Assembly (NCBI GenBank): GCA_001508005.1
Contig: LGEZ01000005.1
Coordinates: 10,150 to 74,149 of the forward strand
Length of the DNA: 64,000 nucleotides
Direction: 5' to 3'
Origin: Clostridia bacterium 41_269
GTDB taxonomy: Bacteria; Bacillota; DTU086
Positions within the stretch are counted from its first letter, which is position 1. Each line of letters begins with the position of its first letter. Below, piece after piece: positions 1,728 through 26,386 of this stretch. The translations under genes and the position numbers were made by a program. Under the pieces are notes generated by a model. That model saw nothing but the letters and a program-made list of their open reading frames with translations, ran no database searches and was not told the DNA's origin.

Positions 1728-1935
1728 TCCAATTACAATTTTTAAAAACTTTTTATTTATATACTTGACAGTTTTTCTTAATGTTAGTCGCTCTAAAAGA
1801 AGTCATTAAAACTAAAGGAAAACATTAAAAATATCTTCCTCTGTAAATATCAACCGTTTCCCCCTTTTCATCTGTGTGTTATACTTGTACAAGAAAGCAA
1901 ATTTAAAAAGCCAATATCCGTGGAGGGGATAAGAG

Positions 1936-2559
1936 ATGTCCGCAAATGAATTTAAAAAGTACAATATAGATTTTGAGGTAGAAGTAAATCTTGATACTGA
2001 AGGTAAAGTAGTTGACGATTCTGATGAGGAGGAAGCTCTAAAAAGAGCTCAGATGGAAGAAGAGGAAAGGAAGAAAAAAGAAGAGAGAAGAAGAAAGAGG
2101 GAAATTCTGCTTACGGGAAAGGATCTGGATGATCTGGGAGAAGAAATTGGAGTTTCCCGCAATAACGGTGAGAGCGACAAGGACTATAGAAACAGAATGG
2201 CAATGAAAGAAGTGGAAGGAAACCTTGAAAAGTGTCTTGAGGCAGCTTTGGCAAAGCGCAGAAAGAACTGGAGCTCTGATGAAGTAAGACTTTATAAAGT
2301 TTTCCAAACTGCAACGGTTGAAATAAGGAAAAAGTTCATTACTGACTATCTCAACAGGGAGGAGTATTCCGAGAAGGTACAGCAGATTGCTGCGAGGTAT
2401 TATGTAAGATTTCCTGAGCCCTGCGTGCTGAGCAATGAGCTGAGGGAATTAATGGTATGGTTCCTTGGAACTGTCGCTCCCTGGGAAAGGGACCCCTGCC
2501 TTGGATGCACCCACTGCCCCCTGGGTAAACACCCTGGAGAAGAGCAGGGGCAGATTTAA
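1936..2559 (+). CDS. hypothetical protein with an acidic/basic low-complexity N-terminal half and a C-terminal CxxCxxC motif
   Basis: 207 aa, the only plus-strand ORF in this region. It is not overlapped by any minus-strand gene. Contains an EEEERKKKEERRRKRE stretch and ends CLGCTHCPLG. Confidence 0.4.
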   Translation: MSANEFKKYNIDFEVEVNLDTEGKVVDDSDEEEALKRAQMEEEERKKKEERRRKREILLTGKDLDDLGEEIGVSRNNGESDKDYRNRMAMKEVEGNLEKCLEAALAKRRKNWSSDEVRLYKVFQTATVEIRKKFITDYLNREEYSEKVQQIAARYYVRFPEPCVLSNELRELMVWFLGTVAPWERDPCLGCTHCPLGKHPGEEQGQI

Positions 2560-2604
2560 ATTTAACGGCCGAGATTCAAGAAAACATAATAATAAAAGTA
2601 AAAA

Positions 2605-2657
2605 GAGGAACGCAGATCTGATGTTGTTCTTCCTTAACCCGCGTTCCTCTTTTTTTG
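2605..2657. terminator. bidirectional rho-independent terminator between convergent atpC and the 1936-2559 ORF
   Basis: GAGGAACGC...GCGTTCCTC stem, followed by TTTTTTTG on plus and preceded by an A-run that gives a U-run on minus. Confidence 0.5.
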
Positions 2658-2679
2658 TATAACCCCCTTGGGCTGGTTT

Positions 2680-3087
2680 TTAAATTTTGCCTGCTGCCTT
2701 CAGCCTTGCCAATGCTCTCTGCAGGGCCAGCTGAGCCCTTACGTAATCAATGTTTTCTTTCCTTTCCCTCAGTCTCTGCAGAGCCCTTTCCTTTGCCGCA
2801 ATGGCTCTATCCACATCAATTTCCTCAGCCAGCTCTGCGGTATCCGCAAGGATAGTTACAACATTGTCTGCTACTTCCATAAAACCTCCGCTGATGGCCA
2901 TTTTCTTTTCCTGTCCCTTTAAGCTGTACCTCACAACCCCTATTCTCAGGCTGGTAATTAAGGGTGCGTGATTGGAGAGAATACCCAGGTATCCTTCGGC
3001 TGCTGGAACGACGATGGAATCCGCCTGAGTTTTTATAACATGGCGTTCTGGAGTAACAACCTCCATTGTAAGAATTTTTTCAGCCAT
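2680..3087 (-). CDS. atpC: F0F1 ATP synthase subunit epsilon
   Basis: 135 aa. Position after atpD. Recognisable epsilon-subunit sequence (VVTPERHV..., C-terminal helical hairpin). Confidence 0.93.
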   Translation of the reverse strand: MAEKILTMEVVTPERHVIKTQADSIVVPAAEGYLGILSNHAPLITSLRIGVVRYSLKGQEKKMAISGGFMEVADNVVTILADTAELAEEIDVDRAIAAKERALQRLRERKENIDYVRAQLALQRALARLKAAGKI

Positions 3088-3102
3088 TTTATCAGCGCTC
3101 CT

Positions 3103-4563
<1,461 letters not shown>

Positions 4564-15717: not shown

Positions 15718-16962
15718 ATGAAAAGAGATGCAAAAAAGAGCATAGGTCTTCTCCTGTCCCTGCTAATTGTTCTCGGGGCCTCTGCCTGCAGTTTAGGAAA
15801 GGCTGAAGGTTCAGGAGAAATCATTGAAGTAAAAACAGCCGCCGCCGAAAAGGGAAGAGCCCAAAAAACCGTAGAGGTAACAGGTTCCCTTCTACCATCC
15901 AGAACAGTTGATATTGAAAGCAAGCTTACGGGCAGGGTAAGCAGTGTCCTGTGTGATGTGGGAGATAAAGTTCAGGCGGGGCAGCTGCTGCTCCAAGTAG
16001 ACGCAAAGGAACTTAAAGCCCAGTTTGAACAGGCTGCTGCCTCAGTGGAGCAGGCAGAACAGCAGGCAGGCCTCGCAAAGATTAATATTGAAACAGCAAA
16101 ACTTCAGCAGGAAACTGCGAGAATAGCAATGGAAAGGGCAAAACTGGAAAAGGAAAACGCACAGAAAAATTACAACCGCATTAAAACCCTTGCTGAAGCT
16201 GGGGTAGTATCCCAGAGTCAGTTAGAGGAAGCTGAGCTAAAACTTCAGCAGGCCCAAAAACAGTATGAAACAGCAGTTAGACAGTACAGGCTTGCTGAGA
16301 AACAGAAAGCCAGCGCAGAGAAGCAGTATGCCATCGCATCAGGTCCCGGCATTGCCCAGGCAGAAGCAGCAAAAAATGTAATAAAGGCACAGCTGGACAA
16401 CACCAGGATAACCTGTCCCATAACCGGTATCGTAACCAACAGATATATAAATCCCGGGGAGCTTGCCACCACAGGAGCAGCTCTACTTACAGTTGCTGAT
16501 ACTTCCTCACTAAAACTGAAGGGTACGGTAAAAGAAGACGTAATTCCATACCTACATCTGGGGCAGAAGGTCAGGATAGAAACGGACGCCCTTCCAGGTA
16601 GAGTTTATCACGGAAGAATAACTGAAATTGGGCCCCTGGCGGAATCCACAGGTCAGCTCTTTCCCCTTGAAGTTGCCGTTGACAATCCAGGACAGCTGAT
16701 GCCGGGAATGACTGCAAGGGCAGTAATTACCTTTAAAGGACCTGAAGGCATAGTGGTACCCCTTTCAGCTGTCAAAAATGAGAAGGGTAAAAACTATGTT
16801 TTCGTTATTGATGACAGGGACAGGGTTAAAAGAAAGGAAATTAAGCTGGGCTTCAAAGGTGATAAGGAAGCCGTTGTACTGAAGGGAATAAAACCAGGAG
16901 ACAGGGTCGCAGCTTCAAATATTGATCTTTTAAGGGATGGAATGCGAGTAAAGGATGTTTAG
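15718..16962 (+). CDS. efflux membrane fusion protein (periplasmic adaptor), lipoprotein
   Basis: 414 aa. Lipobox LGASAC, a long A/Q/E-rich coiled coil, and C-terminal beta-barrel domains. Confidence 0.85.
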   Translation: MKRDAKKSIGLLLSLLIVLGASACSLGKAEGSGEIIEVKTAAAEKGRAQKTVEVTGSLLPSRTVDIESKLTGRVSSVLCDVGDKVQAGQLLLQVDAKELKAQFEQAAASVEQAEQQAGLAKINIETAKLQQETARIAMERAKLEKENAQKNYNRIKTLAEAGVVSQSQLEEAELKLQQAQKQYETAVRQYRLAEKQKASAEKQYAIASGPGIAQAEAAKNVIKAQLDNTRITCPITGIVTNRYINPGELATTGAALLTVADTSSLKLKGTVKEDVIPYLHLGQKVRIETDALPGRVYHGRITEIGPLAESTGQLFPLEVAVDNPGQLMPGMTARAVITFKGPEGIVVPLSAVKNEKGKNYVFVIDDRDRVKRKEIKLGFKGDKEAVVLKGIKPGDRVAASNIDLLRDGMRVKDV

Positions 16963-17537
16963 CGGGTTCTTTCAGCCTTTCCAGGCAGCGTGTAAAGGAT
17001 CTCAACACTGAATCTTCTTGAGCAGCGCCGAATCATTTTAAATACCCTATCACCAAAGAGATAGTAAAAGATGCCGTTTCCCAGGGCATGGGCAGTATCA
17101 AACCAGAAGCTGGCAGCAAAAACTCCAAGGAGAGTTTTAAGATTTAAAGGTTCAACGAAAGCTGCCCAGTACCAGAGGTCGATGATCCAGCCGAAGAGGT
17201 ATCCCCAGAGAAAGGAAAAAGCAGTCATGCTTTTCCTGCCCATTTCAGGGAAAAGCCTTTTCATCATGCCCGCTGACATCCCGGCAAGCCCCCAGGACAG
17301 CATCTGCCATAGGGTCCACGGTCCCTGCCCGAGAAAAATATTGGAAACAAAAGCAGCAGTAGACCCCACCATAAATCCCGCCCTGCTGCCCAGGGCCCTG
17401 CCGGAAACGATAACCAAAAAGGTGGTGGGCTGAACACCCGGAATAAAGGCAAAAGGAAGGCGTCCTACTGCTGCAGCTGCGGCAAGCACTGCCACAAGAG
17501 CGATTTCTTTAGAAGAAGCAGCACCCTTTTCAAACAT
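16959..17537 (-). CDS. ECF transporter S (substrate-capture) component, candidate cobalamin-specific (CbrT-like)
   Basis: 192 aa, about 6 TM. IPGVQPTTFLVIVSGRALG matches the conserved S-component PxxPITLQT...AG..LG region. It is the last gene of the riboswitch-led operon. Confidence 0.65.
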   Translation of the reverse strand: MFEKGAASSKEIALVAVLAAAAAVGRLPFAFIPGVQPTTFLVIVSGRALGSRAGFMVGSTAAFVSNIFLGQGPWTLWQMLSWGLAGMSAGMMKRLFPEMGRKSMTAFSFLWGYLFGWIIDLWYWAAFVEPLNLKTLLGVFAASFWFDTAHALGNGIFYYLFGDRVFKMIRRCSRRFSVEILYTLPGKAERTR

Positions 17538-17706
17538 CAGGTAAAAAACACCAGGGAAGCTGCCGCAGCAAAAATAAGCATGAGCCCAGGATTCTGGGCT
17601 TTAATATTTATCCGCACCATCAGAAAAACCGTTAAAAAAACCGCTGCTCCTGTAAATATCTTCTTATAAACAGACTCCACGTCTCTACCTCCCTTTTCGT
17701 TCCCCT

Positions 17707-19392
17707 TCATCCGGCACTGGAAATGATGGGACCGAGCACTTCCAGAGCCTCCTCTACCGTTGTGATCCCCTCTGCAAAGCCCCGGCACAGCTTCCCCATC
17801 TGAGTTGAATAAAAAAGGGAGCGGCTGAAAACTTCCCGTGCTTCTCCATCGCACACCTTCTCTCCACCGTGAATGATCACTGCTCTTTGTGCAAACTGGG
17901 AAGCAAACTCCACATCATGGGTGGCCATCATTACCGTAATTCCCTGTTCTTTAAGCTCTACCAGAAAATTTCCCAGCTTCATCTTTAAAAACCAGTCAAG
18001 ACCCCTGGTGGGCTCATCCAGAAGGAGAAGGGAAGGACGGAGAACCAGCACCGAAGCCAGGGCTGCCCTCTGCTGCTCTCCACTGCTCAAATCCCTGGGG
18101 TTGGCTTTTCGGCATGCATCAAGTCCCAGCTTTTTCAGAAGGTAATCCACTATGCCGTCATCCTTTAACCCAAAATTTTTCAGAGTAAAGAGGAGTTCCT
18201 CCTCCACGGTGTCCCTGAAAAGATAATCGCTGGGATTCTGGGAAAGGTATGCCACACCTCCGGGAAAAGAGAAGGTGGGGTTCTGGGCCTTTTTTTCCTG
18301 ACTGCAGTGGAATTCCACTCTTCCCTTACTGGGCGCAGCCAATCTCGCCATGACCCTCAAAAGGGTGGTTTTGCCCGCACCGTTTTCTCCAAGAACAGCC
18401 GCAAATTCCCCCATGTCCAATTTAAGGTCTATTCCCTCCAGAGCCCGCCTGCCGTTGGGGTAAATAAAGGAAACATTTTTTAGCTCCATGAGCCTTCCTT
18501 TCTCGCAGGAGAAATTCTCAGCAAAAGTTTTCCCTTTAATTTCCGCCGGAAGACTTTTTCCGTCAAGCCTTTCCTTAAGCACCCTGCGCCCTTCCTTAAC
18601 AGTAAGGGGCACCGGGGAAATGCCCAGCTCGTAAAAGAATCGGCACACGGGAGGAATTAAAACAAGCCCTTCTTTAGGGCACCTCTTTACCATTTCCTGG
18701 GGAGTACCGCAGAACAAAGCCCTACCTCCATCCATAAAAAGTACCCTGTCCGCCAGATGAAGACACCTTTCCAGCCTCTGCTCAATTAAAATCACCGTAA
18801 TACCCAGTTCCTCGTTTATACGCTTAATAAGGTTCAATATTTCCTCTGCCGAAGGAGGATCCAGCTGGGATGTAGGTTCATCAAAAATGAGGACCCTGGG
18901 CTCCATGGCAAGGACCGACGATATGACCAGCTTCTGCTTGATTCCTCCAGAAAGCTCAGAGGTGGGAACATCCTTCACCGCTGTAAGCCCCATAAAGGCC
19001 ATTACTTCAGCTATGCGGCGCCCCATTACATCCCGGGAAAGCCCAAGATTTTCTAAACCGAAGGATATTTCTGCTTCCACCTCCGTCATCACCAGCTGAT
19101 TTTCTGGGTCCTGGAAGACCATTCCTATTTCTCCCGGGGGCACCCTCCTGCGGTCCCTTATCATATCAATGCCCCGATAAAAAACACTGCCCCCTATTCT
19201 ACCACCATAAAAATCAAGGAGCAGCCCTGCCAAAAGCTTTGCCAGGGTGGACTTTCCGGACCCCGATCCTCCTATTATAAGGAAAAATTCCCCCTCGAAA
19301 ATGGACAGATCAATGTCCTCAAGGGCCGGCACACTTCTTTCCGGATAAAAATAAGTCAAATTTTCGATCTCAAATAATGCCATCTCTCCCAC
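17707..19392 (-). CDS. ECF transporter ATPase, fused EcfA-EcfA' (two ABC domains)
   Basis: 561 aa. Two Walker A motifs (GGSGSGKST and GENGAGKTT), two LSGG signatures and two H-loops. Confidence 0.9.
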   Translation of the reverse strand: MGEMALFEIENLTYFYPERSVPALEDIDLSIFEGEFFLIIGGSGSGKSTLAKLLAGLLLDFYGGRIGGSVFYRGIDMIRDRRRVPPGEIGMVFQDPENQLVMTEVEAEISFGLENLGLSRDVMGRRIAEVMAFMGLTAVKDVPTSELSGGIKQKLVISSVLAMEPRVLIFDEPTSQLDPPSAEEILNLIKRINEELGITVILIEQRLERCLHLADRVLFMDGGRALFCGTPQEMVKRCPKEGLVLIPPVCRFFYELGISPVPLTVKEGRRVLKERLDGKSLPAEIKGKTFAENFSCEKGRLMELKNVSFIYPNGRRALEGIDLKLDMGEFAAVLGENGAGKTTLLRVMARLAAPSKGRVEFHCSQEKKAQNPTFSFPGGVAYLSQNPSDYLFRDTVEEELLFTLKNFGLKDDGIVDYLLKKLGLDACRKANPRDLSSGEQQRAALASVLVLRPSLLLLDEPTRGLDWFLKMKLGNFLVELKEQGITVMMATHDVEFASQFAQRAVIIHGGEKVCDGEAREVFSRSLFYSTQMGKLCRGFAEGITTVEEALEVLGPIISSAG

Positions 19393-20294
19393 CCCCAGCC
19401 CATAAACAAGGGAACAATCAGAAAAAACATGATCCCGAAGAAAAAATAAAGGGTTTCTGGAACAGATACAAGCTCCATAAGCCTGGGATAATATGAAAAG
19501 CTTCCTTTGCCGGTATTTACAGCCAAAACCGAAAGCAGCAGCGCCAAAACAGAACAGCCTCCGGTTAAAATATCCCTGGGCCGCACTCTCTCCCGCCTGT
19601 AAACACTCTTTCTTTTTCCCCTGTATCCCCTGGCTTCCATAGCTTCTGCCAGGGTAAAGGAATCCTCTAGAGAAAAACTCAACAGGGTGTCCAGCACCAA
19701 CATATATTTCTCAGCCCTTTCTTTAAGGCCGCCCTCTCCAACATCCACTCCCCTTATAATCAGGGCTTCCCTTATTCCCTCAAGCCTCCTTATAGTACCG
19801 GGAAGAAGTCTTAAAGCCAGTGAAACCACAAGGACAGATTTAGAGGCAGAAAAAGATACCGCCCGAAGAAGCCGGTCAGGGTGAACCATGACATTAAAAA
19901 GAAAAAAAATTCCAAGAACGGTAAGGAGCCTTATTCCCATGGCAGCTCCAAAGCACAGGGCTTCAAGGGTGAATATTACTCTTTCCCCAAAGGGGAGCCT
20001 GGGGCTCTGCCACAGCACTGTTTCTCCAGAACCTGCTCCCAAAAAATTTACCAGCATTATAAGCAGTGCCATGACAGTCCCCGGTTTAAGGAAGATTTCC
20101 AAATCCTCAAGCCCCCCAGTTAAAGCCGCAGCCAGAACAATCACCAAAGAAAGCCCCAAAAGATACAGGGGATGGCTGAAAATAAGGGCCATAACCAGCA
20201 TGGAAAATAGGTACAAAGCGGCAGCCCCGGGATGCAGACTCTGAAAAAATAAATTCCCTTTTTTAAAATTAAACTGGTATGGGTATCCATTCAT
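19356..20294 (-). CDS. ECF transporter transmembrane T component (CbiQ/EcfT family)
   Basis: 312 aa polytopic protein. Overlaps the ATPase start. Typical EcfT coupling-helix region (ARGYRGKRKS...). Confidence 0.85.
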   Translation of the reverse strand: MNGYPYQFNFKKGNLFFQSLHPGAAALYLFSMLVMALIFSHPLYLLGLSLVIVLAAALTGGLEDLEIFLKPGTVMALLIMLVNFLGAGSGETVLWQSPRLPFGERVIFTLEALCFGAAMGIRLLTVLGIFFLFNVMVHPDRLLRAVSFSASKSVLVVSLALRLLPGTIRRLEGIREALIIRGVDVGEGGLKERAEKYMLVLDTLLSFSLEDSFTLAEAMEARGYRGKRKSVYRRERVRPRDILTGGCSVLALLLSVLAVNTGKGSFSYYPRLMELVSVPETLYFFFGIMFFLIVPLFMGWGWERWHYLRSKI

Positions 20295-20328: not shown

Positions 20329-21033
20329 TTAAGGCTTTAAAGAATCCCATGACGGACCCCGAAAGTTACTGCCCGCACTGTACCACCATATAATTTTATC
20401 TCCCCCTTTAACGGACATCTTACCAGCAGAAATGCTGGGAATTCTATCATTCACCTTGTACATCCATCCGCTCATCCCCTCATTTTTCTGCCCTTCCACC
20501 GATGTTACAAAGTCTCCATAGAGGGGGCTTATGGTAAAACTTAATCCTGTAGCTTCCAAGGCACCCAGAGCCGTGATCCCCCACCTGCTGTTTTCATTTA
20601 AGGTTACGAAGGAAGGACCAAAAAGCAGCTCGCCATTTTTTCCTACCACAGCAATCCAGACTTTTGTACCGCCTGATTTTTCTGCATCCTTTAGGTCCCT
20701 TTTTTGCTCTGAAAAATCTTTTTTCTGCTGCCCCTCTTTACTTCCAAAACCCTCTTTGCTTCTGCTCTCGTGCCCCGCAGTGCTTCCGCTGCTTTCCCTT
20801 TTATCCTCAAAAGAGGCTTGGTCTCTTTCTGAAACTTCATTTCCTTGGGCAGTTACTTTTTCTTCTGGCTTTTCTTCATCTACAGAAGCAGGTTTCTGAA
20901 CTTCCTTTAAAGTCAAGGAGTTCTTTAAATCATCAGAAGAAACTCCGTTAAAATGGCTGTATAGGGGAGGGCCCAAAAGGGCCAGCACCAGCACCAAAAA
21001 CGCAGCAAAGTAATGCCACCTTTTTTTGAACAT
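20329..21033 (-). CDS. signal-anchored DUF4430 (transcobalamin beta-domain-like) protein
   Basis: 234 aa. N-terminal hydrophobic anchor, a long E/K/S-rich linker, and a C-terminal block (GWMYKVNDRIPSISAGKMSVKGGDKIIWWYS) nearly identical to a block in the upstream 863-aa protein. Confidence 0.7.
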   Translation of the reverse strand: MFKKRWHYFAAFLVLVLALLGPPLYSHFNGVSSDDLKNSLTLKEVQKPASVDEEKPEEKVTAQGNEVSERDQASFEDKRESSGSTAGHESRSKEGFGSKEGQQKKDFSEQKRDLKDAEKSGGTKVWIAVVGKNGELLFGPSFVTLNENSRWGITALGALEATGLSFTISPLYGDFVTSVEGQKNEGMSGWMYKVNDRIPSISAGKMSVKGGDKIIWWYSAGSNFRGPSWDSLKP

Positions 21034-21061: not shown

Positions 21062-23653
21062 CTACTCCCATCCTTCCATCAGCACTCTGTATATCAGCAC
21101 CGCTGCTTCAGCCCTTTTTATAGCATTCTTCGGCCCAAATGTCCCATCTTCATAGCCCTTTATAAGACCGCGCTCCACTGCAGAAGCAACGGCTGTCCCT
21201 GCCCAGGGAGAAATGCTGGAAGCATCCTTAAATGAAAGAAGACCTTTTTCTTCCGTTTTTTCTCCCAATGCCCTCATCAGCATTACAGCGGCTTCTTCCC
21301 TGCTTATGCGGATGTATGGCCTAAAGGTGCCGTCTTCGTACCCTTTAATTATACCTTTTGCCGCGGACAGCATTACTGCATCATAAAACCAGCGGTCTTT
21401 TCCAACATCTTTAAATTCCCCATGGGGCAGTACTTCTATCTCACATTTTTCTTTAATTTCCAGAGCTCTCAGCAGCATTGCAGCAAATTCTGCCCTTGTG
21501 ACATCTTTACCGGGCTCAAAGTTTCCCCGTCCTGTTCCCTCAATGATACCAGCGCCACCAAGGAGCTCCACTGCATCGGAAGCCCAATTATATGCTTTTT
21601 TATCTCCCACATCACTAAAATACATCCTTTTTTCCTTTACAAATACCGCAGTACTGGATAATTCTTCAACAGCCCCAAAAACTACGCTTTGGGAAGCATC
21701 AAAAACGCAGGGCAGAGCCGTCCAGCTCTTCTTTTCCATGTCATATTGTGCCAGGACAACATCATCAGCCTTTGACAGTGGAGGAAGGAAAACTTTAAGA
21801 TAGAACACCGCTGGTGATCTGAGCTTTATACCTTCGGGTTCCAGGCAGTAAACAGGTGTAATAAGACGAAATCCCTGGGGTTCAGGATATACAGAGTCTT
21901 CTCCCACTTCCCGCACTGAAACTTCAGCTTCTTCAGCAAAGGATTTCCCTGGAACCACAAGAGCCGCCTCAAATCCGTCGGTAACAACCCCTCCCCTTTC
22001 AGGGTCCACTTTCATATTTATTTCAACAACATTCTTATCCAGCTTCCTTTTTAAAGCCAACCTCTCGTCAGCAGCGGGCATTAAATCTTCCCCTACTACG
22101 ACCACTGTTCTCCCTGCCTCTTCAATTTTCCCAAGGGTTTTTACTCTTTTTTTCAAGCCCAGCAAAGTGTACAAATTTTCGAAAGCATTTAACGCATTAT
22201 TTGAAACTTTAAGTGAAGGGGAAAGTTTTTCAACCTGTGCCGCAATTTCTTCAGAAATAACTTCCGTATTGTCGGCTTCCTCAAGCTGAAGCAGGTCCTC
22301 CCAGTCAGGACCCACAGAATCCAAACTGGTGCTGTACCACCAGATTACCTTATCTCCCTCGTCCACCTCGTAGTCCTTTGCCGATACAGAAGGAATATCA
22401 TCGTTTACCTTATACATCCAACCGCTTAAACCCTTGTTTGCCAAGCCACAAATTGAAGTAACAAAACCGTCCCACCTGCTGGACACCTCATAGGGAAGCC
22501 CCGTGGCATCGAGGGCTCCAAGGGCTGTCGCTCCCCAGGGATTGTCGGGATCAATGTCCACATAATCTGGGCCAAAAAAAATTTCGTTGTTTAAGCCCAC
22601 TACACCTACACCGACGGTAATGGCTTTTTGCTGCACTTCACCTCGGGGCTGCTGGGGCCAGTTATTATTCCCCTGGTAATCCGGCAGTAAATCTCCAAGA
22701 ATTAAATACGCATACAATGCCCAAGTGGCGTCCATTGTGTTCCTGACTTCTCCGAAGCTTCCGTCACTGTTTAAAGCATCTTCTATCATATAATCAATAG
22801 CGCTTTTGCCCTCAGAACTTTTCCACGAAGACGGGTCCCTTCCCCAAATTTTCAGGGTAACAATAACCTCAACCGTATCAATTAAAGCGTCATCCCAGGA
22901 AGAAGCCTCAAAGCTCCCGTCAGCGTTCTGTTTTCCCCGCATCCAATCAAGCCCTGCATTAACTGCCTGCTGAACGTCACTGGCGCTTTTTATATTCTCA
23001 GGCAGTGCCTTTAGTATGCGCAGAGCCTGGGCAGTAGCCATAAAATCGGGGTAAAAGGCGCTTCCCCAGCTGGCCCCCCATGAGCCGTAGCTTTCTGCCT
23101 CCTTATCCGTACATTGGCTGCTTAAAACATAACTTTTTACCTGCTCAGCATTCAAAATGCTTAAAAGCCCTGCTTGCGCCAGAGCATCAAGGGCTGCAAA
23201 GTCGCTGTATATATTTCCGTCAAAGCCCCTGTCCTCGCTCCATCTGCTGAAAAGAATACCCTTAAGCTGTGCGGACAGATCTTTGTACCCCCACTTTTCC
23301 GCCGCAAGAATGTGATGGGCTATTTCTTTAGCAGAAACCCCCTCTGGGTTTTTAACAATATCCTGGGCTTTATTTAATATCACCTGCTTTAAGGAAAGTC
23401 CTTCGTAGGTCCACTTCTGAACGGAAACATCCTCCCCAGCCAGGGTAAGCACATAGGCATCATAGGCTGATAACTTACTGCCGCTTACGTAAGCATTAAG
23501 GTTGAACTCCACAGCTTTTGAAATGAGCTGTTCATAGGTAGAAGCCGCCCCTGTACTGAAAGGGAGCCCCATTAAAACTAATAAAATGACAAGGATAAAA
23601 ACAGAAACAGATTTCAGTAAAATGGAGCCTCTAAATCTTTTTATTACCCCCAC
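21062..23653 (-). CDS. SLH-anchored surface protein: alpha/alpha-toroid (terpenoid cyclase/prenyltransferase-like) domain + DUF4430 + three C-terminal SLH repeats. I propose it is a transcobalamin/intrinsic-factor-like B12-capture protein.
   Basis: 863 aa. GTG start after AAAGGGAGG, then a signal peptide. DGSFE/DGSFGE repeat motifs. DUF4430 block GWMYKVNDDIPSVSAKDYEVDEGDKVIWWYS. Three SLH motifs (FSDVGDKKAYNW..., FKDVGKDRWFYDAV..., FKDASSISPWAGTAV...). It is the first gene after the B12 riboswitch. Confidence 0.8.
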   Translation of the reverse strand: MGVIKRFRGSILLKSVSVFILVILLVLMGLPFSTGAASTYEQLISKAVEFNLNAYVSGSKLSAYDAYVLTLAGEDVSVQKWTYEGLSLKQVILNKAQDIVKNPEGVSAKEIAHHILAAEKWGYKDLSAQLKGILFSRWSEDRGFDGNIYSDFAALDALAQAGLLSILNAEQVKSYVLSSQCTDKEAESYGSWGASWGSAFYPDFMATAQALRILKALPENIKSASDVQQAVNAGLDWMRGKQNADGSFEASSWDDALIDTVEVIVTLKIWGRDPSSWKSSEGKSAIDYMIEDALNSDGSFGEVRNTMDATWALYAYLILGDLLPDYQGNNNWPQQPRGEVQQKAITVGVGVVGLNNEIFFGPDYVDIDPDNPWGATALGALDATGLPYEVSSRWDGFVTSICGLANKGLSGWMYKVNDDIPSVSAKDYEVDEGDKVIWWYSTSLDSVGPDWEDLLQLEEADNTEVISEEIAAQVEKLSPSLKVSNNALNAFENLYTLLGLKKRVKTLGKIEEAGRTVVVVGEDLMPAADERLALKRKLDKNVVEINMKVDPERGGVVTDGFEAALVVPGKSFAEEAEVSVREVGEDSVYPEPQGFRLITPVYCLEPEGIKLRSPAVFYLKVFLPPLSKADDVVLAQYDMEKKSWTALPCVFDASQSVVFGAVEELSSTAVFVKEKRMYFSDVGDKKAYNWASDAVELLGGAGIIEGTGRGNFEPGKDVTRAEFAAMLLRALEIKEKCEIEVLPHGEFKDVGKDRWFYDAVMLSAAKGIIKGYEDGTFRPYIRISREEAAVMLMRALGEKTEEKGLLSFKDASSISPWAGTAVASAVERGLIKGYEDGTFGPKNAIKRAEAAVLIYRVLMEGWE

Positions 23654-23859
23654 AGGCAGTTTCCTCCCTTTAAATTTTTACGCCGTAAAAATTTAAAAAG
23701 GCTGCAGCTTCAAACCACCCCCTTTTTGACCATCAGGATGGGGCAGAAAGCCGACAGCCTTTTTTGAGCAGAAAATCCCCCAAACCCGAAAAAACCAATC
23801 CGCTTTTTCGGCATAAAAGCAAAAACCCTGCTCCTAAGCAAGCAGGGGCCAAGGCCTTC

Positions 23860-24040
23860 CCCATCCTGCGTAGGGAGCACCCAGCTCACAGGCAGGAACA
23901 GGTCTCCTGGCTCGGCTTCACCGCAGGCCTGCGCCTTCCCAGGCAAAAGCCCAGTGGCATAATGCAGACTGCTCCACCTTACAGTGGCGCGGACCGCGCC
24001 GGATTCTCACCGGCTTCCCTTGATACCTGCCCGTCTGTGT
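23860..24040 (-). promoter_or_regulatory. cobalamin (B12) riboswitch
   Basis: Minus-strand RNA ...AAGGGAAGCCGGUGAGAAUCCGGCGCGGUCCGCGCCACUGUAAGGUGGAGCAGUCUGCAUUAUGCCACUGGGC... carries the GGUG-AA-UCC core and the B12 box GCCACUG. It is about 200 nt upstream of the 863-aa gene start. Confidence 0.8.
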
Positions 24041-24204
24041 TTTTTTAAATTATAACCGATGGAAAAAAACGGGTCAACAGGGACCAAATGCTGACCCTTT
24101 AGCTTAGCGAGGAAATAATTAACACCCTTTTTAATATGACAGAACCTCCTTCGGCCACATATTATGTGTTTAGTATACAATATGTAATTTAAGGAGGACC
24201 TTTA

Positions 24205-25017
24205 ATGTCAATAACAATTACTGTGTTCCCTGGAAAAGACAAAGCAAATCTTAAGGAAAACTTTAAACCCATCACCTTTATCAGTGGGGAAAGTGTTTCC
24301 ATTGTGGGACCCACAGGAAGCGGCAAAACAGCTTTTATTAACGATATTGAACTCCTTGCCCAAGGGGATACCGTAACGGGCCGTACCGTTATGATCAACG
24401 GGCAGTATCCTTCAGATGAGTACCGGCACAATCCCGCCGTTAAACCCATAGTCATGATCACCCAAAATACCAAATGCTTCACCGATCTTACCGTGGAAGA
24501 GTTCATCCTTACCCATGCCAGGGCTAGAAAAAAGGAAGGGCCCAAAATAGCGGCATTAACAATAGAGATGGCTAACCTCTTTACTGGAGAAAAAATTTCC
24601 GAAAAAATGCGGGTTACATCTCTTTCAGGGGGACAGACAAGGGCCCTTATGATTGCCGACGCCATAACTGTGGGAGCTGCACCCATTATCCTGCTGGATG
24701 AAGTTGAAAATGCAGGCATTTTTAAACATAAGGTGATAGAAGTGATTAAAAATACGGATAAAATTATCATTTTCGTAACCCATGACCCCGTTATTGCCCT
24801 GCTTACGGATAAAAGAATAGTAATGAAAAATGGTGCTGTTAAGAAGGTCATCAACCAAAGCAAAAAAGAACTTTGGGCTGCCAAAGTGCTAATAGATCTT
24901 GACCAAAAAATGGGGATGATCCGCGAAGAACTGCGCCGGGGAAACATTATTTCTGAGGAAATCCTTGGAATTATAGGGCTTGAAGCCGGCGTAGTAACAA
25001 GCGCGGAGGTGGTTTAA
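24205..25017 (+). CDS. stand-alone ABC-type ATPase (no adjacent permease)
   Basis: 270 aa. Walker A GPTGSGKT, signature LSGGQ, Walker B ILLDEVENA, H-loop VTHD. Confidence 0.85.
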   Translation: MSITITVFPGKDKANLKENFKPITFISGESVSIVGPTGSGKTAFINDIELLAQGDTVTGRTVMINGQYPSDEYRHNPAVKPIVMITQNTKCFTDLTVEEFILTHARARKKEGPKIAALTIEMANLFTGEKISEKMRVTSLSGGQTRALMIADAITVGAAPIILLDEVENAGIFKHKVIEVIKNTDKIIIFVTHDPVIALLTDKRIVMKNGAVKKVINQSKKELWAAKVLIDLDQKMGMIREELRRGNIISEEILGIIGLEAGVVTSAEVV

Positions 25018-25724
25018 TGAAACTTTTAATTATTGCAGGTCCTCCCTCCTCTGGAAAAACCGCTTTGGCTAAACAGATCATAAAAAATTTAGGTTATTGC
25101 TTAAAAATTTCCTTCTTAAAGATTGATGTGGTAAAGGCCTTTGAAGATGAAGAACTTAAGAAGGAATTTAATATTGAAACTATGAAGGTGTATTCAGGGG
25201 ATCTGTGTCCCGATCATGCGGAAGTAATGGTTCTGGGAGATGCTGTTTCGTGGGCAGAAAACTTAAAATCGGACCTATTGATAGTTGAAAGCGCAGGGCT
25301 CTGCTTAAGATGTTCTCCTTACCTAAATCAGGGATTGGGAATAGTGGTACTGGACGCCATCTCCGGCATTCATGCCCCTGCAAAAATGGGACCCATGGTG
25401 AGCCTGGCAGATATAGCCGTAGTAACAAAGATCGATCTGGTTAGCCAGGCGGAAAGGGAAGTGTTCAGGCAGAAAATTTTTGAAATTAATCCTGAAATTC
25501 AGATGTTTGAGACAAATGCCCTTTACGGCACTTCCCTGCAGTTCCTCTATCGCAAAATTCTTATGTCGGACCCCATAAATCCTGAAACCCTTAAACTTAA
25601 GGGGGTTCCGCCCATAGGCACCTGCACCATATGTGTGGGGAGAAAGGAAATCGGATGGAAGCACCACTTCGGCATAGTAAAAAAACTTGATCAGTGCAGT
25701 GAATATCTCTACAGGGGGGAGTAA
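25017..25724 (+). CDS. G3E-family P-loop GTPase (HypB/UreG/MeaB-like metallochaperone)
   Basis: 235 aa. Walker A GPPSSGKT. LLIVESAGLCL...VVLDAISG...VVTKIDL parallels HypB ENVGNLVCP...VLSVTEG...VINKIDL. Start codon overlaps the stop of the ABC ATPase. Confidence 0.75.
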   Translation: MKLLIIAGPPSSGKTALAKQIIKNLGYCLKISFLKIDVVKAFEDEELKKEFNIETMKVYSGDLCPDHAEVMVLGDAVSWAENLKSDLLIVESAGLCLRCSPYLNQGLGIVVLDAISGIHAPAKMGPMVSLADIAVVTKIDLVSQAEREVFRQKIFEINPEIQMFETNALYGTSLQFLYRKILMSDPINPETLKLKGVPPIGTCTICVGRKEIGWKHHFGIVKKLDQCSEYLYRGE

Positions 25725-25726
25725 CC

Positions 25727-26386
25727 ATGGGTGAAAAAGGAATAAAATGGCTGCCTCCCGGGAAGAACTGCGGACTATGCGGGTTAAAAACCTGCAGCCT
25801 CTTTGCAGCTCTTGTTGAAGCAGGAATTAAGAACCCCAAGGACTGTCCCTATTACCTTGAAGCAAAAAGTCCCAAAGAAAAAAATCTTCCGGAATATATA
25901 GAACACGAAGCCCTTTTCCCTGAAAGAGATGTATTGGGGAAAGAATTTGATTTTATTCTCCATCCCCTGCCGGGGGAAATTTCTGCACGAAAAATCATAC
26001 TGCCCTTCAGAAGCAATCTGGTGGATACCAGGAAAATAGTTCCAGGAGATATAGTTATGGGAAGGCCCATGGGGGCGGGCTGCCCCATCCCCCATGTTCT
26101 TAAAGTTATAAAAGCTGAACCCCTAACGGGACTTCTCCATACCTGGGTAGTGGGTCCAAAATACTCTCGAGAAGGAAAAGTAAAAATTAAAGATCTTTCC
26201 GCCTACCACATGGTGGGATTTGAAGGAATTGCCCGAAATATAAAAAGGGAACCCACTTTTGGAATGAGACAGAGATTTCTTCCAGGATTCTGCATGATGA
26301 CCTTAAGCCATACGGGAATCATCAACATGATTCTTGTTAAAAAAAGCGGGCTTCACGTACGAATAGAAGATATCAGGATTATGTAG
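25727..26386 (+). CDS. protein with an N-terminal Cys4 putative [4Fe-4S] domain (CFeSP-large-subunit / RnfB N-terminal type) and an uncharacterised C-terminal domain
   Basis: 219 aa. PPGKNCGLCGLKTCSLFA...KDCPYY matches the CX2CX4C...C 'putative Fe-S cluster' domain. Sits 2 nt after the GTPase gene. Confidence 0.65.
   Translation: MGEKGIKWLPPGKNCGLCGLKTCSLFAALVEAGIKNPKDCPYYLEAKSPKEKNLPEYIEHEALFPERDVLGKEFDFILHPLPGEISARKIILPFRSNLVDTRKIVPGDIVMGRPMGAGCPIPHVLKVIKAEPLTGLLHTWVVGPKYSREGKVKIKDLSAYHMVGFEGIARNIKREPTFGMRQRFLPGFCMMTLSHTGIINMILVKKSGLHVRIEDIRIM

Follow-up and report, generated by a model that had tools for sequence, protein, structure and literature searches.

A riboswitch-headed operon in Clostridia bacterium 41_269 that probably encodes a dedicated ECF-type corrinoid importer

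A five-gene operon in a 64,000-nucleotide (nt) stretch of the Clostridia bacterium 41_269 genome (assembly GCA_001508005.1, contig LGEZ01000005.1, positions 10,150 to 74,149; hereafter the window) is, by family, probably a dedicated (group I) energy-coupling factor (ECF) importer for corrinoids of the CbrT/CbrUV kind, a reading to which we assign a probability of about 0.75. It has an S component whose only significant relative of solved structure is the cobalamin transporter subunit CbrT, its own T component and its own double ATPase, and it lies behind a full-length cobalamin riboswitch. As such it would fit the predicted vitamin B12 transporter CbrTUV, in which a CbrT-type S component, an own T component and an own ATPase stand under B12 control. 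Two further genes, both encoding proteins with the transcobalamin-like DUF4430 domain, precede the transporter genes, and the last gene, which encodes the S component, is split by a frameshift. The parts of the operon are listed in the order of transcription, in window coordinates.

24049-24077, minus strand: promoter-like site TTGACC, 17-nt spacer, TATAAT, by consensus match only
23880-24043, minus strand: cobalamin riboswitch aptamer RF00174, by covariance-model match
23816-23847, minus strand: terminator-like hairpin CCCTGCTTGCTTAGGAGCAGGG with a T-run, after the riboswitch
21062-23653, minus strand: gene for an 863-amino-acid (aa) surface protein, first gene of the operon
20329-21033, minus strand: gene for a 234-aa DUF4430 protein, second gene
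19356-20294, minus strand: EcfT, 312 aa, by Pfam CbiQ and by alignment with L. delbrueckii EcfT
17707-19392, minus strand: fused EcfAA' double ATPase, 561 aa, by Pfam and NCBIfam, with EcfA1/EcfA2 as PDB relatives
16959-17680, minus strand: S component, split into 47 aa and 192 aa, last gene
17537-17680, minus strand: 5' fragment of the S gene, a 47-aa open reading frame (ORF) with the two-helix extension, collinear with residues 1-47 of the relatives
17543-17548, minus strand: T6 frameshift site in the S gene, by DNA alignment to the nearest relatives
16959-17537, minus strand: core of the S component, CbrT-like, six helices, a 192-aa ORF, by matches to ECF_trnsprt and 6fnp_A

The transporter, its riboswitch and its surface proteins

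The identification of the S component comes from profile and motif comparison. The 192-aa ORF barely exceeds the cutoff of the Pfam family ECF_trnsprt (32.6 bits, cutoff 30.7). Searched as a single sequence against the PDB sequences, it finds 6fnp_A, the CbrT of L. delbrueckii, at E 7e-12, with the next S component at E 0.013. A profile made from 16 sequences of the S family matches 6fnp_A at E 2.5e-19 over residues 4-175 of 182, and the next S component, 4hzu_S, at E 1.8, which leaves CbrT as the only significant relative among the solved structures. The S component is thus specifically CbrT-like, as an earlier note made from the window sequence had proposed, and these searches support it. 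BLASTP identity between the two proteins is 31%; this falls inside the range of 25-60% reported among CbrT homologues (PMC5997447). The complex in 6FNP, ECF-CbrT of L. delbrueckii, transports cobalamin and cobinamide and is not inhibited by hemin (PMC5997447). Motifs common to the window protein and CbrT are VQP(T/V)T, SNIFLGxGxWTLxQ and FDxxHAxGN, and those invariant in the S family are QP(T/V)(T/S)F, SNxFLG(Q/H)GPWTxWQM, WGY and HAxGN. The six helices of the earlier description hold, and its conserved pocket motif, PxxPxT...AG..LG, is only loosely right, the invariant motifs being different ones.

The riboswitch is the second element on which the reading is built. At 23880-24043 the window matches RF00174 on the minus strand with 106.9 bits (gathering score 31.5) over model positions 1-189 of 189, and with 142 bits under our own covariance model R1, so the B12 control claimed for the operon is borne out by a complete aptamer at its head. 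The site directly upstream of it agrees with the promoter consensus at 11 of 12 positions, and from this match we take it to be a putative promoter. Downstream lies a hairpin with an 8-pair stem, including 5 G-C pairs, and the tail TTTTTGCTTT; hairpin and T-run are likely the expression platform of an OFF switch. When the leader was folded (z-score -1.46), the terminator hairpin was present in the centroid structure only, and for this reason attenuation is a mechanism that we infer. Distances between successive genes of the operon are 28, 34, -37 and 26 nt, short enough to make co-transcription of all five plausible; the values of -37 and 26 nt are those from T to A and from A to S, which follow each other directly on the same strand.

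EcfT matches Pfam CbiQ with 41.8 bits (cutoff 25), and its residues 12-260 align with residues 11-261 of the 265 of L. delbrueckii EcfT. Its ALRLLP and AMEARGY pair with ALRFVP and AMESRGY, the two Ala-Arg-Gly coupling motifs of the latter. Past the end of the L. delbrueckii protein it continues for about 50 aa (residues 261-312, window 19356-19510, minus strand), and tblastn alignments suggest that this C-terminal extension is conserved across the family. The extension holds a further hydrophobic segment, LYFFFGIMFFLIVPLFMGWGW.

The next gene encodes two ABC_tran domains (Pfam) in one protein. Both NCBIfam ECF ATPase models pass their cutoffs, each in two stretches (ECF_ATPase_1 with 368 bits, cutoff 315; ECF_ATPase_2 with 346 bits, cutoff 330), which agrees with the description of a fused EcfA-A' with two complete ATPase domains, and among PDB proteins EcfA1/EcfA2 come closest to it. 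Each half has its Walker A, Q-loop, signature and Walker B motifs. At the H-loop of the N-terminal half (residue ~204) the window protein and a subset of its relatives have Gln for His (LIEQRLE), whereas other relatives have EHRLE and the C-terminal half of the window protein retains THD. The two ATP sites of the protein could be asymmetric on this account. A look-up of the exact 561-aa protein in public assemblies returned no record. In the CbrTUV nomenclature we take EcfAA' to be the CbrU-type (ATPase) and EcfT the CbrV-type (T) component.

These three ORFs, of 312, 561 and 192 aa, are at the coordinates first given for them, on the minus strand and at the end of the operon. That earlier extent, 16959-20294, covered the T, AA' and S genes correctly and left out the two DUF4430 genes upstream; the observation was thus partly confirmed, being correct except for the boundaries of the S gene, to which we return below.

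The 863-aa protein encoded by the first gene consists, in order, of a signal or anchor helix, an alpha/alpha toroid, a DUF4430 beta domain, a middle region and three SLH repeats. Pfam gives DUF4430, the C-terminal domain of transcobalamin, with 61.5 bits and SLH with 131.8 bits in three stretches, and the SLH region matches the S-layer protein Sap. The three repeats, at the C-terminus, would serve as its anchor in the cell wall. An AlphaFold2 (AF2) model of residues 35-455 (pLDDT 91.4) shows the alpha/alpha toroid followed by the beta domain, and its 15 best PDB structure matches are haptocorrin, transcobalamin and intrinsic factor (E 5e-10 to 8e-7), each spanning both domains over 431-459 aligned columns. 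The overall root-mean-square deviation of these matches is large (~24 Å) because the relative orientation of the two domains differs in the model. Prenyltransferase and terpene-cyclase toroids rank after the three carriers. As modelled, the protein would have the two-domain fold of transcobalamin, haptocorrin and intrinsic factor, and corrinoid binding is predicted for it. When the 863-aa and 234-aa proteins were searched against the PDB with phmmer, SLH domains or nothing at all were returned and no carrier; since the sequence search missed the carriers, the transcobalamin relation needed the Pfam DUF4430 match and the structure model to come to light. Residues ~455-680 (window 21620-22290, minus strand), which connect the transcobalamin-like region with the SLH repeats, have no Pfam match. 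One homologue of the protein (P0121), named Ig-like, has PF02368.

The second gene encodes the beta domain only, behind an N-terminal hydrophobic anchor and a charged low-complexity linker, with DUF4430 at residues 154-219 (54.5 bits). In L. helveticus the genes nrdJ, a 136-aa DUF4430 gene, cbrT and pduO follow each other in this order, so that a DUF4430 gene lies directly upstream of cbrT, at the position named cbrS (PMC5997447). The pairing of DUF4430 with CbrT therefore holds for the characterised CbrT type as well, and the 234-aa protein is the counterpart of cbrS in the window.

A split S gene

Upstream of the 192-aa ORF, the earlier note had described a gap of roughly 170 nt with a possible small hydrophobic ORF. 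This segment is in fact the 5' end of the S gene, as its collinearity in related genomes makes plain. Homologues of the S ORF are mostly ~210-270 aa, against 192 aa in the window. The two nearest relatives of the S protein, P0001 (91% identical) and P0002 (76%), have starts collinear with the small ORF and continue directly into the S core. Where the window has a run of six T (T6, 17543-17548), both have seven (column 173 of the DNA alignment), and restoring one T yields a single ORF of 240 aa from GTG 17680. That start codon is preceded by a ribosome-binding site, GGGAGG, and the AA' stop is only 26 nt upstream of it. The S gene is thus cut by a 1-nt deletion in the window genome into a 47-aa ORF (17680-17537) and the 192-aa ORF, with stop and start overlapping in TGATG. 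For annotation the lesson is that a short hydrophobic ORF and a 192-aa S ORF were one gene broken at a T-run. The small ORF was also considered as an independent gene for a micro-protein, which we rejected, the segment being collinear and in frame with S in 82 of 82 related loci.

In these 82 loci (described below) the in-frame N-terminal extension is always present and S is always one ORF. Most loci have an extension of ~45-55 aa that forms two hydrophobic helices; in a minority it measures ~20 aa and has one helix. In an AF2 model of the full-length relative P0001 (pLDDT 90.6) there are eight helices, two extra N-terminal ones (residues 2-25 and 31-52) and the six-helix core.

The same T6 and the same 192-aa ORF recur in a second assembly (Logan, run SRR1977357), which makes it less likely that the frameshift arose through an assembly error. 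A sequencing error may lie behind the T6, and the two assemblies may share reads.

It could be argued that this copy of the operon is decaying or inactive, in that the frameshift abolishes the substrate-binding subunit and no transport takes place in this organism. The break at T6, its identical recurrence in the second assembly and the intact S gene of all 82 related loci, which implies that the N-terminal extension matters, are what such a copy would show, and no Shine-Dalgarno sequence precedes the internal ATG. However, the remaining genes of the operon are all intact, and the 192-aa ORF spans the whole CbrT-homologous region, CbrT itself having no extension. Some members of the family also have only the one-helix extension of ~20 aa, and a systematic sequencing error in reads common to both assemblies could account for the T6. 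The TGATG overlap is moreover a classic arrangement for translational coupling, and because the ATG overlaps the upstream stop, the core S protein may still be made in this way; synthesis by such coupling is possible, judging from the overlap. On balance we consider an inactive copy unlikely, with a real chance of being right, and retain the corrinoid importer as the better description of the operon.

Related loci, known systems and the substrate

The set of related loci comprises 80 found by a genome scan and 2 from look-ups of P0001 and P0002, 82 in all. The 80 scan loci come from Moorella, Desulfotomaculum, Pelotomaculum, Clostridium, Paenibacillus, Bacillus and relatives, as well as from Lactobacillaceae, Actinomycetota, Dehalococcoidia and two archaea. 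Genes around S were counted by tblastn with the window proteins, and riboswitches with a covariance model made from six of them, five confirmed by Rfam and that of the window.

T component adjoining S: 78/82 loci
Single fused double-ATPase gene near S: 80/82 loci
DUF4430 gene near S: 41/82 loci
Toroid (alpha) domain near S: 13/82 loci
Cobalamin riboswitch upstream on the same strand: 52/82 loci

The first two counts bear out the claim of a dedicated transporter. They also qualify the remark that a fused AA' is less common than two separate genes, as within this S family the fusion is a constant. B12 control is not peculiar to the window either. Five of the positive riboswitch sites were confirmed by Rfam itself, which also returned three of the negative loci as free of cobalamin riboswitches; for about 10 of the 30 negative loci the upstream sequence is too short to judge. 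In a neighbour-joining tree the riboswitch-bearing loci are scattered through the family, and the window groups with L001 and L002.

Further riboswitches were seen around some of these operons. For example, two tandem aptamers (123 and 139 bits) stand ahead of the operon in Desulfotomaculum copahuensis (L004, 2382-2922, plus strand). Additional cobalamin riboswitches lie downstream of the homologous operons, or at other places close by, in L003 (11394-11617), L029 (16935-17085), L046 (14439-15155) and L042 (14097-14247 and 19856-20000), and suggest that the operons of these four loci belong to clusters of B12-regulated genes.

The name CbrTUV, or CbrUVT, was reportedly introduced by Rodionov et al. 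in 2009. CbrUVT is listed, alongside BtuBCDF, as a B12 transporter signature (PMC6593275), and comparative genomics applies the name to the ECF signature for taking up B12 or cobyrinate diamide (PMC6593275, PMC8123684). The window operon represents the same concept and is almost certainly of the same family, as far as CbrTUV is defined through secondary citations. CbrTUV is itself a prediction, and the fused ATPase, the S extension and the DUF4430 genes may lie outside its definition.

The characterised relative, ECF-CbrT (6FNP), resembles the window system in its homologous S component, its DUF4430 partner (cbrS), its B12-linked context and its EcfT with two ECF-type ATPase domains. It differs in belonging to group II, where a CbrT of 182 aa and six helices borrows a shared EcfAA'T module and cbrT belongs to an nrdJ-cbrS-cbrT-pduO cluster. 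Full-length proteins closely related to the CbrT of L. delbrueckii mostly have 170-182 aa. The window does not have the solitary S gene of ~175-182 aa with a shared EcfAA'T that marks group II, its module being dedicated. In contrast to ECF-CbrT, it has a fused A/A', a two-helix extension of S (here split off), a T component longer by ~50 residues at its C-terminus, a large two-domain binder anchored by SLH repeats and, together with some relatives, Gln instead of His at the H-loop of the N-terminal ATPase half. BtuCD-F is like the window system in driving corrinoid uptake with ATP and in using an extracytoplasmic high-affinity binding protein, but it is a type II ABC importer with unrelated membrane and binding-protein folds, and no homologue of it was found in the window region examined.

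The surface proteins have a precedent as well. In 2007, Burroughs, Iyer and Aravind reported on transcobalamin-like SLBB and alpha-toroid proteins of bacteria, secreted or tethered to the surface, in which an alpha/alpha toroid is fused to a beta-grasp domain of the transcobalamin type, often with a second paralogous SLBB protein in the operon and with CbiO-like and CbiQ-like genes alongside, and predicted a role in B12 scavenging (PMC1796856). Desulfotomaculum and Syntrophomonas are among the organism abbreviations of that paper (PMC1796856). Those systems were described before S components and ECF transporters were recognised, and the text contains neither "riboswitch" nor "SLH".

Several observations weigh against a corrinoid importer of the CbrT kind. 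B12 transport by the dedicated subfamily is a prediction from sequence. Identity to CbrT is only 31%, and the neighbour-joining tree places the L. delbrueckii protein outside the subfamily, as a long-branch outgroup. When the P0001 S model was compared with the PDB by Foldseek, the top matches were all S components (target-normalised TM-scores 0.5-0.73), and CbrT came 42nd among the S-component structures (0.49), with RibU, HmpT, PanT, FolT and ThiT ranking over it. The ~19 evaluable riboswitch-negative loci mostly make up whole clades of the family, namely the B. cereus group, the Lactobacillaceae, and Dehalococcoidia joined by an archaeon. A scan of ~20 other window genes showed none that depends on B12 or serves its biosynthesis (cob/cbi). 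The frameshift in the S gene may leave the system inactive, and an operon of the same described gene content has been linked to heme in L. sakei (bioRxiv 10.1101/864751).

With regard to the Foldseek ranking, the CbrT of 6FNP is a toppled chain in an apo structure at 3.4 Å. Fold comparison was rejected as the decider of the S family, since the S fold is generic and places CbrT only 42nd; CbrT-like specificity accordingly rests on sequence and not on fold. Within up to 10 kb upstream, no cobalamin riboswitch was found in the B. cereus group loci L062, L068, L069, L073-L075 and L081, in the Lactobacillaceae loci L019, L034, L044, L067 and L072, or in the Dehalococcoidia loci L007, L011 and L014.

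The L. sakei operon raises the question of whether the substrate is heme, the main rival to corrinoids, or tetrapyrroles broadly. Its genes, lsa1836-1840, encode an S component, a fused AA', a T component, and transcobalamin-beta-like and transcobalamin-alpha-like proteins; a strain deleted for them accumulated 5- to 8-fold less 57Fe-hemin, a loss that complementation reversed (bioRxiv 10.1101/864751). Judged by the paper's description only, this is the same five-gene content as in the window, and the five Lactobacillaceae loci named above, which belong to the window S family, show the T-AA'-S core. In L. sakei, however, the alpha and beta domains are separate proteins, while in the window they are fused and SLH-anchored. 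The L. sakei paper, which reports a heme importer, mentions no riboswitch (bioRxiv 10.1101/864751). The heme context of that type, with catalase and Dyp-type peroxidase genes nearby and no B12 regulation, is not what the window shows, as a riboswitch is present. The Lactobacillaceae members of the window S family without a riboswitch are in favour of heme; this clade is of the same bacterial family as L. sakei. On the other hand, a cobalamin-specific riboswitch governs the window operon and 52 related loci, hemin does not inhibit the characterised ECF-CbrT (PMC5997447), a scan of 20 neighbouring genes gave no heme-related family, and the L. sakei effect was seen only at 5-40 µM hemin (bioRxiv 10.1101/864751). 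Because of the riboswitch in particular, heme is the less likely substrate for the window locus, and we regard it as improbable to a high degree.

Another possible reading is that the operon imports cobalt, in the manner of CbiMNQO, or dimethylbenzimidazole, in the manner of CblT, through an unrelated S family. Riboswitch control would suit the uptake of either, the T component matches a Pfam family named CbiQ, and some NCBIfam matches of the ATPase are named "cobalt transporter". These cobalt-named equivalogs are nonetheless all under their cutoffs, the models that pass being generic ECF ATPases, and there is no CbiM or CbiN gene; the cobalt reading was rejected for these reasons. The homology of S to CbrT and the transcobalamin-like binders, which recognise whole corrinoids, speak against both substrates, and the chance that either is right seems close to negligible. 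We therefore keep to corrinoids as the predicted substrate of the window transporter.

Neighbourhood and implications

The rest of the window is housekeeping in nature, with genes for ATP synthase, SHMT, RF1, Sua5 and ion transporters. Divergent from the operon lies a trio of genes (24205-26386, plus strand) for a lone ABC ATPase (270 aa), a GTPase of the CobW/HypB/UreG type (235 aa) and an FeS protein with PF04060 (219 aa). L002 has the same trio (1732-3907), likewise divergent from its riboswitch operon. The three genes may form an accessory module connected with metals or corrinoids. At the other end, the S gene overlaps a convergent gene for a 414-aa membrane-fusion protein (RND/MFP-type) by 4 nt at the stops (16959-16962), with no terminator-like site found between the two genes. 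The S-MFP-MFP-MFS neighbourhood occurs in L001 and L084 as well.

The analysis establishes the identities of the genes, the homology of S to CbrT, the riboswitch with its recurrence among relatives, the transcobalamin-like fold and the frameshift. We infer the substrate, its hand-over to S and termination as the switch, and the split S may still work; together these would give the following cycle. At low intracellular cobalamin, transcription would read through the riboswitch. The SLH-anchored 863-aa protein and the membrane-tethered 234-aa DUF4430 protein would then capture corrinoids outside the cell, and the ligand would be handed from these surface binders to the CbrT-like S component in the membrane. 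S would topple in the EcfT scaffold, driven by ATP hydrolysis in the fused AA'. Once cobalamin is plentiful, it would bind the aptamer and the downstream hairpin would terminate transcription.

A more speculative idea, put forward by analogy and in our opinion doubtful, concerns the extra helices that distinguish this family from the characterised ECF-CbrT, two at the N-terminus of S and about one at the C-terminus of T. They might form a docking platform that receives the corrinoid from the surface-tethered transcobalamin-like proteins. If true, this would amount to a Gram-positive relay of capture and hand-over, like that of transcobalamin and its receptor or of BtuG and BtuB, and the split seen here would mean that the extension of S is able to act in trans, as a small membrane protein of its own. 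A shift of the riboswitch-less clades (B. cereus group, Lactobacillaceae) to heme would be a further possibility.

The operon type was already predicted in 2007-2009, to which the window adds another member, and for that reason the finding would not surprise a specialist. B12 uptake in Gram-positive bacteria is far less understood than the BtuB/BtuFCD route of Gram-negatives. To our knowledge, group II ECF-CbrT is the only characterised ECF type for B12. The window offers a clean dedicated example, with riboswitch, SLH-anchored binder, second DUF4430 protein, own T component, fused AA' and extended S. The survey shows this set of parts to be widespread in Bacillota and present also in Actinomycetota, Dehalococcoidia and some archaea, and it sharpens the conflict in the literature between B12 and heme for similarly organised operons.

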